From NCBI GenBank assembly GCA_965206695.1, contig CBDBKM010000011.1, positions 128,001 to 192,000 of the forward strand: DNA of 64,000 nucleotides. The letters run 5' to 3'. The translations under genes were made by a program, and so were the position numbers. The DNA comes from Chlamydiales bacterium (GTDB lineage: Bacteria > Chlamydiota > Chlamydiia > Chlamydiales > JAAZZY01). Below are positions 3,803-4,525 of this stretch, in pieces. How positions within the stretch are numbered: the stretch's first letter is position 1; the number at the start of each line of letters is the position of its first letter. The notes below the pieces were generated by a model. That model was given only the letters and a program-made list of their open reading frames with translations, did no database searches and was not told the origin of the DNA.

Positions 3803-4525
3803 TTATACGTTGTCTACAAGGAGCTCTTCCCCCTTATAGATATCTCTATTAGCTACATAAAAATTTATATTTTCATCAAAAATGACTACAGATATATTAT
3901 TTTCTCCTAACTGAGCGGAATTTATCCAGTCAAAGTCATACTCATTTATCCCGCTAAATTCATTTTCCGAATTGGATTCATCAACAACACGACCTGAATA
4001 AGGGCCTAAAACTTCGAATGCTTTAATATCTCTTGTTGCACAGGCAGAACATAGGCTATCCCGCCCGATCCCTATAGGAATAATAAGATCATAAATAGCA
4101 TTCAAACGATTTTTATATTCTATTATATTCTTGTTTCTTAGTAGTAACCACTCACTCATGCTGTCCCTTATTGTATCCTGAAGGTTCTCTTTTTTTGAAG
4201 TAATTGAACCGTACAGATACCTATTGAGGTCACCCCAGTTGCTATCGAGGGGACCCCATTTAATGCTTCTTTTAATGCTTCTTTTAGACATAGGCTGTCT
4301 GCATAAAACACAATCTGCATCTGCCTTTTCTGGTTGATTGTCTGCCCATATGGAAATACATTTTAGATGTATTGGGTGAAGGTTTCCTTGTTTTTGAGTA
4401 TGCTCAACGTATTTACTATCGTAGTCATGCTCCTGCTCAACGTATTTACTATCGTAGTCATGCTCCTGACATATAGGACATACATAGTTTTCTGGTATAT
4501 TTTGAGAAAATTGTATAGTACTCAT
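3803..4525 (-). CDS. RING-like zinc finger plus degenerate SET-domain protein, paralogue of 57339-58787; possibly decaying
   Basis: CPIC...HPIHLKC..W...CVLCR; C-terminal RDIKAFEVLGPYSG, NSAQLG and NINFYVAN shared with the SET gene. Confidence 0.7.
   Translation of the reverse strand: MSTIQFSQNIPENYVCPICQEHDYDSKYVEQEHDYDSKYVEHTQKQGNLHPIHLKCISIWADNQPEKADADCVLCRQPMSKRSIKRSIKWGPLDSNWGDLNRYLYGSITSKKENLQDTIRDSMSEWLLLRNKNIIEYKNRLNAIYDLIIPIGIGRDSLCSACATRDIKAFEVLGPYSGRVVDESNSENEFSGINEYDFDWINSAQLGENNISVVIFDENINFYVANRDIYKGEELLVDNV
4401..4466. repeat. 33-bp tandem duplication (QEHDYDSKYVE x2) inside the RING loop
   Basis: TGCTCAACGTATTTACTATCGTAGTCATGCTCC twice. Confidence 0.95.

Follow-up and report, generated by a model that had tools for sequence, protein, structure and literature searches.

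A RING-SET mosaic gene built from two local families in a chlamydia-like genome rich in insertion sequences

Intracellular bacteria are already known to use RING E3 ubiquitin ligases and, separately, SET methyltransferases as eukaryote-like tools. Here, we describe a gene that carries parts of both, namely a 240-aa open reading frame (ORF; hereafter the RING-SET ORF) in a 64,000-nucleotide stretch of a Chlamydiales genome (assembly GCA_965206695.1, contig CBDBKM010000011.1, positions 128,001 to 192,000; the whole stretch is called the window, and feature coordinates are collected in Table 1). Among the closest described systems is SneRING (SNE_A12920) of Simkania negevensis, reported as an experimentally active RING E3 that works with host E2 enzymes despite non-canonical ligands, with Asn as the first ligand of zinc site 2 (PMC12591485). 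Both proteins are chlamydial, start with an atypical RING that is followed by an unrelated C-terminal domain, and carry Asn at the first position of zinc site 2. They differ in the adjoining spacing, which is N-x2-C in SneRING and N-x-H in the RING-SET protein (a comparison by description, not by sequence), and in the C-terminal domain, which is alpha/beta in SneRING, with no function assigned in that report, and a SET remnant here. Next to the experimentally active SneRING, the RING-SET protein stands for another RING lineage of chlamydiae, the second in which Asn occupies a zinc-ligand position.

In Neochlamydia, the NEX1b RING/U-box family is expanded and has been read as interfering with host ubiquitination (Domman et al. 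2014, PMC4209131). It resembles the family studied here in being an expanded chlamydial family that combines an N-terminal RING/U-box with a variable binding domain; its partner consists of leucine-rich repeats and it is described as being under purifying selection, whereas the RING-SET gene carries a SET remnant and has copies that differ only nonsynonymously. For NEX1b and for the expanded ubiquitin-related families of Parachlamydiaceae, the same source gives ratios of nonsynonymous to synonymous substitution rates (dN/dS, or omega) of 0.29-0.63 and found no positive selection. On the SET side, Legionella LegAS4 and RomA and Chlamydia NUE (PMC2904774) are likewise examples of eukaryote-like domains in intracellular bacteria. 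The SET region of the parental family, termed NUMOD3-SET below, aligns best with LegAS4 (5czy, E 1.1e-3) and RomA (8sr6), including the INY motif (FFINYG versus LLINYN). Unlike these bacterial SET effectors, the RING-SET protein lacks the conserved Tyr, the YLF insert and the C-terminal flank, and carries a RING finger instead of ankyrin repeats or NUMOD3. Eukaryotic PHD-SET proteins (ATXR5/6-type; KMT2E, with an inactive SET) also place a cross-brace finger N-terminal to a SET domain, but no homology of the present finger to PHD was shown, and the RING-SET architecture arose in a bacterial genome from two local families. No RING-SET fusion was found in the literature examined, nor among 5.8 billion clusters, 1.84 billion representatives (searched with the RING part) and 40 related genomes; the bacterial SET-domain review PMC3980110 contains no occurrence of the words RING, zinc, paralog, Parachlamydia or Protochlamydia.

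The RING-SET gene is intact and lineage-specific, a mosaic that combines two local families of a chlamydia-like genome rich in insertion sequences (IS). We hold with moderate confidence that it encodes a fast-evolving candidate secreted RING E3 in which a dead SET domain may act as a binding module, a function proposed from sequence. From the locus one can read how an obligate intracellular bacterium makes a new candidate effector out of material of its own: the modules come from two families that have expanded locally, short repeats mark the junction, catalytic residues are lost with the frame kept, and amino-acid change accelerates. It provides a concrete case, open to testing, in which an enzyme domain would have been reused for binding.

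An atypical RING-type zinc finger of a rare chlamydial family

The N-terminal module is an atypical RING-type (RING-CH-related) zinc finger from a small, rare chlamydial family. The leader MSTIQFSQN is followed by C16, C19, H42, N48, H50, H53, C56, W60, C72, C75 and R76 and by a P-x-SKRSI tail, the core reading C16-P-I-C19 ... N48-L-H50-P-I-H53-L-K-C56-x3-W60 ... C72-V-L-C75. RING-H2 fingers have eight ligands with the spacing C-x2-C-x(9-39)-C-x(1-3)-H-x(2-3)-H-x2-C-x(4-48)-C-x2-C, which served as our signature. A first-pass annotation of the window, made from the letters alone, had proposed that the N-terminus of a SET gene had here been exchanged for such a finger, with seven of the eight ligands in place. 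Reading out the residues bore this out: seven of the RING-H2 positions are filled (C16, C19, H50, H53, C56, C72 and C75), and Asn48 occupies ligand 3. The ligand set of RING-H2 (Pfam PF13639, zf-RING_2) is thus incomplete in the RING-SET protein, which scored 11.9 bits against that family (E 0.29, cut-off 27.3 bits).

The best Pfam family of the module is RING-CH/RINGv (PF12906: MARCH, viral K3/K5, yeast Doa10), with which it shares a Trp four residues after ligand 6. A hidden Markov model (HMM) scan for RING families, named as a check in the first-pass annotation, gave a match through the relative P0003, which clears RINGv with 34.0 bits (E 3.3e-8), its match extending across all profile positions (1-47). 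In a six-frame scan of the genome RINGv reached 19.3 bits at the RING-SET ORF and 22 when neighbouring pieces were added; a twin copy of the gene on contig C12 scored 16.0 bits, and further, weaker RING families also appeared in the Pfam list of the RING-SET protein. A sister protein, P0005 on contig C10, recalls MARCH in that two hydrophobic segments (residues 112-139 and 186-206) follow its finger, whereas the RING-SET protein has no hydrophobic segment. The family departs from RING-CH in that the Cys-x-Cys pair is replaced and the invariant His42 and His50 lie elsewhere, which gives a C2-H3-C3 pattern.

In an alignment of four members, C16, P17, I18, C19, H42, G47, L49, H50, P51, C56, W60, C72, C75, P78 and SxRSI were invariant (4/4). 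When its profile was compared with PDB sequences, the RING-CH domains of Doa10 (E 0.01) and c-MIR/MARCH8 (0.036) were the best matches, with K3 (0.99) ranking lower, and in the Doa10 and c-MIR alignments H53 falls on ligand 5 and C56 on ligand 6. Six ligands are canonical in this reading, namely 1, 2, 5, 6, 7 and 8 (C16, C19, H53, C56, C72 and C75); ligands 3 and 4 are not, and H42 and H50, both invariant, may substitute for them. Asn at ligand 3 was found in the RING-SET protein, its twin, P0003, P0009, a Waddliaceae ORF and a broken copy on contig C7, with His in P0005 and Tyr in two broken copies. Because most members carry it, Asn48 is a family trait and no sign of decay. The invariant His42 offers an extra candidate ligand, and with it the family has eight invariant Cys/His positions. 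Ile18, Trp60 and Arg76 lie at what we take to be the places of the E2-contact Ile, the E2-contact Trp and the linchpin Arg of RING E3s, and the finger may recruit a host E2. The first loop is lengthened by 11 residues through a 33-bp tandem duplication, which the relatives lack and the twin shares with one mismatch.

Relatives outside the genome were few. Queried with the whole RING-SET protein, a word index of 5.8 billion clusters returned only two proteins, and queried with the SET region of the window paralog only four, all from the same genome. The 240-aa protein had no match at E <= 0.001 in the 40 related genomes searched. With residues 1-94 as the query, a full HMMER scan covering 1.84 billion representatives found six matches at E <= 0.001, namely the twin cluster, P0005, P0003 and three repeat-rich proteins that match via generic zinc-finger or low-information stretches. 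P0003 comes from another source, has 151 aa and shows 45-47% identity; its cluster also holds P0008 and the 233-aa P0009. Scanning species genomes revealed a 111-aa ORF in a Waddliaceae metagenome-assembled genome with the signature ...AHSGTGNLHPIHLKCIEVW... as in the RING family, while L044, a second candidate from that scan, was discarded as a false positive (a pilin-like ORF). A RING-module profile search restricted to longer proteins found own-genome proteins only. The RING family appears to be rare and, among the sequences found, chlamydial. In P0003 and P0009, a second Cys/His-rich stretch (CSLC...HSDC...CGDC) follows the RING-type finger, and in P0009 H53 has moved by one residue (HPVYHPC).

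A shortened SET domain in a mosaic of two local families

The first-pass annotation had claimed that the ORF is paralogous to a second SET gene of the window from WGDLNRYL onward. Indeed, BLASTP against that paralog aligned residues 95-238 with 297-470 (79/175 identities, 45%, E 4e-38), and the strings DTIRDSMSEWL, RDIKAFEVLGPYSG and NINFYVAN were all found in the RING-SET ORF. Pfam SET (PF00856) matched residues 162-238 with 23.4 bits (E 8.6e-5), marginally above the cut-off of 22.4, and the twin stayed under it with 21.2 bits. Alignment of the DNA also confirmed the claimed absence of about 30 residues after GPYSG and of the terminal YG. A 96-nucleotide (nt) deletion takes out ...SAYLFETSSSH, that is, the YLF strand segment, and a 123-nt deletion removes the last 13 codons of the paralog (YGPHYNFTIKNE) together with the old stop, so that the protein now ends in ...LVDNV. 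In addition, eight codons are inserted before INSAQLG and about six are deleted after it.

At the Tyr motif, the paralogs read INYG, VNYG or VSYG, while the RING-SET protein and its twin read VDN-V-stop; the conserved Tyr of the (E)ELxxxY(G) motif of SET methyltransferases is missing in both. The VNT motif of the paralogs corresponds to INS in the RING-SET protein and INP in the twin, and neither the SET-I insert with its YxF strand nor an N-H-type motif was found in the RING-SET protein. In SET enzymes the YLF strand, the N-T/N-H motif and the Tyr motif form the cofactor site and the lysine channel. Methyl transfer is very unlikely because the YLF strand, the Tyr and the C-terminal flank are lost, and methyltransferase activity of the RING-SET protein is accordingly judged unlikely from these alignments. 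For the window paralog, whose motifs are complete, nuclear targeting is suggested by an SV40-like stretch, PSKKRKV, around residue 55.

When the genome was searched in six frames with residues 95-240, nine loci with a SET-type C-terminus and differing N-termini were found: the RING-SET ORF, the 240-aa twin on C12, six full-length members (307-706 aa) and a 165-aa fragment on C10. Pfam NUMOD3 was above cut-off in four of the six full-length non-RING members, the other two being P0002 and P0013. Pfam SET was found at 11 loci, which adds two canonical genes, each about 220 aa long and carrying RFINH and DYG/NYG motifs. The NUMOD3-SET genes (window, C8, C12, C3, C11 and C5) vary in the number of NUMOD3-type repeats; the C8 gene encodes 405 aa against 482 aa in the window and is otherwise nearly identical, its last 300 codons differing at 5 nt.

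The RING-type module, in turn, occurs at six loci: the RING-SET ORF, its twin, the intact C10:456335 (P0005, 238 aa) and three broken ones (C7, C3 and C11:492-708). All six share an MST(I/V)xFS start; as a general leader of the SET family this motif was rejected, since the scan found it only at these loci and in two short unrelated ORFs. As SET-type and RING-type parts each occur with different partners, both halves are modules that are found elsewhere in other company. A RING match and variable N-termini, on which the first-pass annotation had staked its proposal of a modular effector family, were thus both found. The modularity stands; the supposed constancy of the C-terminal domain does not, given that the RING-SET copy lost segments expected for catalysis. 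Likewise, the N-terminus is interchangeable as proposed, but the RING module is itself mobile, as in P0005 with its two hydrophobic segments. On contig C3 the two families are physical neighbours: a broken RING-type gene, in two pieces about 2 kb apart (147984-148105 and 150124-150291), lies divergently about 330 nt upstream of the NUMOD3-SET gene C3:146217-147668.

Pairwise alignment, which the first-pass annotation had named as the way to map the junction, located it at residues 85-94. DNA homology to the RING loci spans the first 252 nt of the gene together with 66-75 nt ahead of the ATG. Homology to the SET loci extends from nt 286 to 714, with 71-78% identity overall and as much as 87% over the final 98 nt. 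Beyond the SET part come the 3' flank of the SET loci and then the IS630-family element that also follows the window paralog. The fusion is old, because the closest SET donors reach only 71-78% DNA identity.

Divergence of the twin copy and rival explanations

The twin on contig C12 encodes 240 aa and is 93% identical to the RING-SET protein. The two genes differ at 20 of 723 nt, and all 20 differences are nonsynonymous; they affect 17 codons, three of which are hit twice. A neutral Monte Carlo simulation with the observed transition share gave an expectation of 4.9 synonymous changes, and none at all in 0.3% of the runs (P 0.003). The SET part holds 18 differences in 438 nt versus 5 in 851 nt of the flanks (Fisher P 1.5e-5; about 7-fold density), and only 2 of the 20 fall into the RING part. 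Derived states were placed on the window copy in four cases and on the twin in six, with five ambiguous. The RING part is under constraint (omega 0.48 against the P0005 gene), and omega ranged from 0.46 to 0.59 among the NUMOD3-SET paralogs. All three internal indels of the SET part (-32, +8 and about -6 codons) are in frame, and both RING-SET copies are intact while three of the four other RING-family loci are broken. A diversity-generating retroelement was rejected as the origin of the twin differences, which are not adenine-specific and comprise 11 transitions and 9 transversions of all kinds. Gene conversion from the SET paralogs was rejected as well: the differences are isolated single bases, and a conversion tract would bring synonymous changes too, because possible donors are only 71-78% identical. 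The neighbourhood of the twin (C12:1-20000) contains an adjoining tyrosine, phage-type integrase, with PPR-repeat, ankyrin, Fic-ankyrin and helix-turn-helix genes around.

The comparisons show the following course of events. A RING finger from a small chlamydial family was joined to a SET part from the genome's own NUMOD3-SET family, after which the SET part lost 32 codons with the YLF strand, the Tyr (now Asn239) and the C-terminal flank, with the frame kept. We propose that the protein no longer methylates. It would be secreted by the type III system and be directed at the host, where the RING finger could recruit host E2~ubiquitin; the SET remnant, fast-evolving but with its helical pre-SET region conserved, could serve as the target-binding module, perhaps for those lysine-bearing targets in the host on which the sibling SET enzymes act. 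Type III secretion is putative; its context consists of the export-gate gene (FHIPEP) present in the genome, the eukaryote-type domains, the island around the twin and the shared leader. The labels "effector" and "ubiquitin-ligase mimic", taken over from the first-pass annotation, are likewise inferred.

Several results weigh against this proposal. The RING-SET protein stays under the RINGv cut-off (18.3 bits, E 0.0027, cut-off 21.6; profile positions 12-47 only), although the low score is partly explained by the 33-bp duplication, which stretches the first loop. The RING-CH Cys-x-Cys pair is absent, with ligands 3 and 4 falling on T43 and K45 in the Doa10/c-MIR alignment, and zinc site 2 would have to use His42 and His50 at a non-canonical spacing. 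The AlphaFold2 models were poor, with a mean predicted local distance difference test score (pLDDT) of 47.6 for the whole protein (9-row alignment) and 60.6 for residues 1-94, and the whole-protein model was kept out of the fold search. Comparing the RING model with the PDB, Foldseek gave no match at E <= 0.001, its top rows, all weaker than that, being the RING domains of HRD1, Doa10, c-MIR and RNF13. VIA-align reached at best Z 5.2 (7cq2_A, Slx1 RING, root-mean-square deviation 3.4, 80 aligned), where Z under 8 is unspecific, followed by 5.1 each for 5d1k_B (AO7) and 6y22_A (Deltex 2); most of the 50 rows were RING by title. On the side of a RING identity stand the fact that these weak fold matches are nearly all RING domains and the Atlas look-alikes of residues 1-94, which are RING clusters at 0.83-0.86 and leads only. 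A further point against the proposal comes from comparing the SET part with the nearest NUMOD3-SET paralog, which yielded dN 0.34, dS 0.21 and omega 1.64 (16 synonymous and 94 nonsynonymous changes), a value that alone is also compatible with relaxed constraint. A neutral frame of 146 codons stays open with a probability of 0.35 to 0.04 after 30-110 substitutions, and the nonsynonymous excess is based on just 20 sites. Finally, contigs of the only public run with this stretch carry the letter of the twin at all 20 sites, together with the twin's flank differences; letters of the window copy occur at only two of the 20 sites, on a low-depth contig that is probably another paralog. Such contigs show presence, not absence, and it is the assembly alone that places both copies in one cell.

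The gene could instead be a non-functional chimera on its way out, that is, two fragments joined by IS activity, tolerated and useless, whose open frame and second copy reflect chance and a recent duplication. We consider this unlikely, if by no means negligible. The lost catalytic Tyr, YLF segment and C-terminal flank would fit such decay, as would the omega of 1.64 against 0.46-0.59 among the NUMOD3-SET paralogs, the location within IS debris, the visibly broken state of other family members and the neutral frame survival probability of 0.04-0.35. Yet neutral decay does not predict a SET part with 7-fold more differences than the non-coding flanks, and it is further opposed by the zero synonymous changes among the 20 twin differences where 4.9 were expected (P 0.003), by three of three internal indels in frame, by a RING part that is constrained (omega 0.48, two of the 20 twin differences) and by the conserved 5' region. 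Because in-frame indels, two intact copies and the lack of synonymous twin differences come together, a retained, fast-changing protein is favoured over a pseudogene. The suspicion of the first-pass annotation that this copy may be decaying holds for the enzyme chemistry and fails for the ORF, whose in-frame indels, two intact copies and nonsynonymous excess are not the neutral pattern. A rather improbable variant of the RING E3 proposal is a targeted-degradation device, in which the SET remnant docks either on what the NUMOD3-SET siblings recognise (host histones or other substrates with lysines) or on those siblings, and the RING finger ubiquitinates the partner. In the case of sibling docking, the RING-SET protein would be a metaeffector that determines how long its own paralogs persist, in the manner of Legionella LubX, which reportedly acts on SidH. 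If the device in either form were real, the all-nonsynonymous twin divergence would mean retargeting. A complex prediction of the SET remnant (95-240) with the SET region of the paralog (290-482) returned a score of 0.00, without a verdict either way.

That the finger is a PHD-like reader or a DNA- or chromatin-binding zinc finger, and the protein a non-catalytic chromatin-binding nucleomodulin like PHD-SET proteins with inactive SET, seems improbable to us. The cross-brace fold is common to PHD and RING-CH fingers, the whole-protein Atlas look-alikes include PHD+SET clusters and an 'inactive histone-lysine N-methyltransferase 2E-like' entry (0.82-0.84, leads only), and phmmer matched the N-terminus to the repeated C4HC3 fingers of P0004, a 1834-aa SET protein (E 2.7e-10 summed over 10 stretches). 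However, for the RING-SET protein and P0003 alike, Pfam listed RINGv and other RING families at E <= 1 but none of the PHD families; the H-x2-H-x2-C-x3-W spacing is RING-H2/RING-CH-like, the Trp that typifies PHD fingers two residues before ligand 7 is absent, and the best PDB profile matches are the RING-CH domains of Doa10 and c-MIR. Least plausible of all, and in our view very improbable indeed, is a SET methyltransferase that is still active with a minimal core and uses the RING finger for targeting. It could draw on the Pfam SET score slightly above cut-off (23.4 versus 22.4 bits) and on the retained core strands RDIKAFEVLGPYSG and NNISVV..NINFYVAN..GEEL. It is contradicted by the Asn in place of the INYG Tyr in both copies, with the chain ending one residue on, by the missing 32-residue YLF segment, by the N-T position, which reads N-S in the window copy and N-P in the twin, by the twin falling under the Pfam SET cut-off (21.2 bits), and by the concentration of substitutions in the SET part.

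Coordinates and genomic setting

The host genome comprises 2.46 Mb in 13 contigs with 35% GC. Chlamydial content of the window includes a CT021-family protein, fused glycyl-tRNA synthetase subunits and a long signal peptidase, and the window is full of IS elements. Apart from rpsT and an IrrE-like peptidase ORF, the surroundings of the RING-SET ORF consist of IS remnants (Table 1 lists the features of the locus itself).

Table 1. Features of the RING-SET locus and its paralog (positions in the window)
Feature	Position	Strand	Remarks
RING-SET mosaic ORF	3803..4525	(-)	240 aa, ATG start, stop codon at 3803-3805
RING-type module, residues 1-87	4265..4525	(-)	own-genome and outside relatives; Pfam RINGv
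33-bp tandem duplication (QEHDYDSKYVE twice), perfect, 2.1 copies	4401..4468	(-)	loop between ligands 2 and 3
12-bp-period repeat, 2.3 copies (KRSI KRSI K)	4259..4286	(-)	at module junction; relatives have a single KRSI
Junction zone, residues 85-94	4244..4273	(-)	RING-paralog homology ends, SET-paralog homology begins
SET-family-derived part, residues 95-240	3806..4243	(-)	helical pre-SET region and shortened SET domain; BLASTP, Pfam, DNA alignment
In-frame 96-nt (32-codon) deletion versus paralog, exact, after GPYSG	3992..3993	(-)	DNA alignment; removes VLHDGEETFSQVKRQHGPRNISAYLFETSSSH
Codon Asn239, aligned to conserved Tyr of paralogs' (I/V)NYG motif	3809..3811	(-)	ORF ends two codons on
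5' leader/promoter region common to other RING-type loci	4526..4600	(-)	72-84% identity
79-nt stretch	5054..5132	(-)	94% identical to stretch upstream of NUMOD3-SET genes (58968-59046, contig C8)
3' flank common to NUMOD3-SET loci	3710..3805	(-)	88-94% identity, two pieces
Segment of ~1.57 kb duplicated on contig C12	3640..5213	(-)	98.4% identity; C12 copy bounded by IS copies
IS630-family element (DDE_3-type)	2655..3596	(-)	ORFs 2660-3157 and 3154-3564; directly downstream of RING-SET ORF
NUMOD3-SET paralog, 482 aa, complete SET motifs (YLF, VNT, INYG)	57339..58787	(-)	Pfam NUMOD3 E 2e-9 (4 stretches) and SET

The same IS630-family element as beside the RING-SET ORF also lies downstream of the NUMOD3-SET paralog, at 56006-56948. 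The element has very many copies in the genome, with at least six within the 64-kb window; its 90-nt end yielded well over 100 BLAST rows spread over all contigs. In the island of the twin, two PPR-repeat ORFs are split by an IS630-type transposase. Contig C12 has a GC content of 33.9%, the second-lowest of the 13 contigs, with only C6 being lower (33.6%).

Elsewhere in the window, the 372-aa ORF at 54083-55201(+) has no Pfam family, and the 529-aa ORF at 41600-43189(+) has a weak Pfam match only (PP2C_2, E 1e-5). At 6429-7066(-), a 117-aa IrrE/M78-peptidase-like ORF overlaps a 95-aa ORF without a family among IS debris, and the two are possibly a toxin-antitoxin-like or regulator pair.

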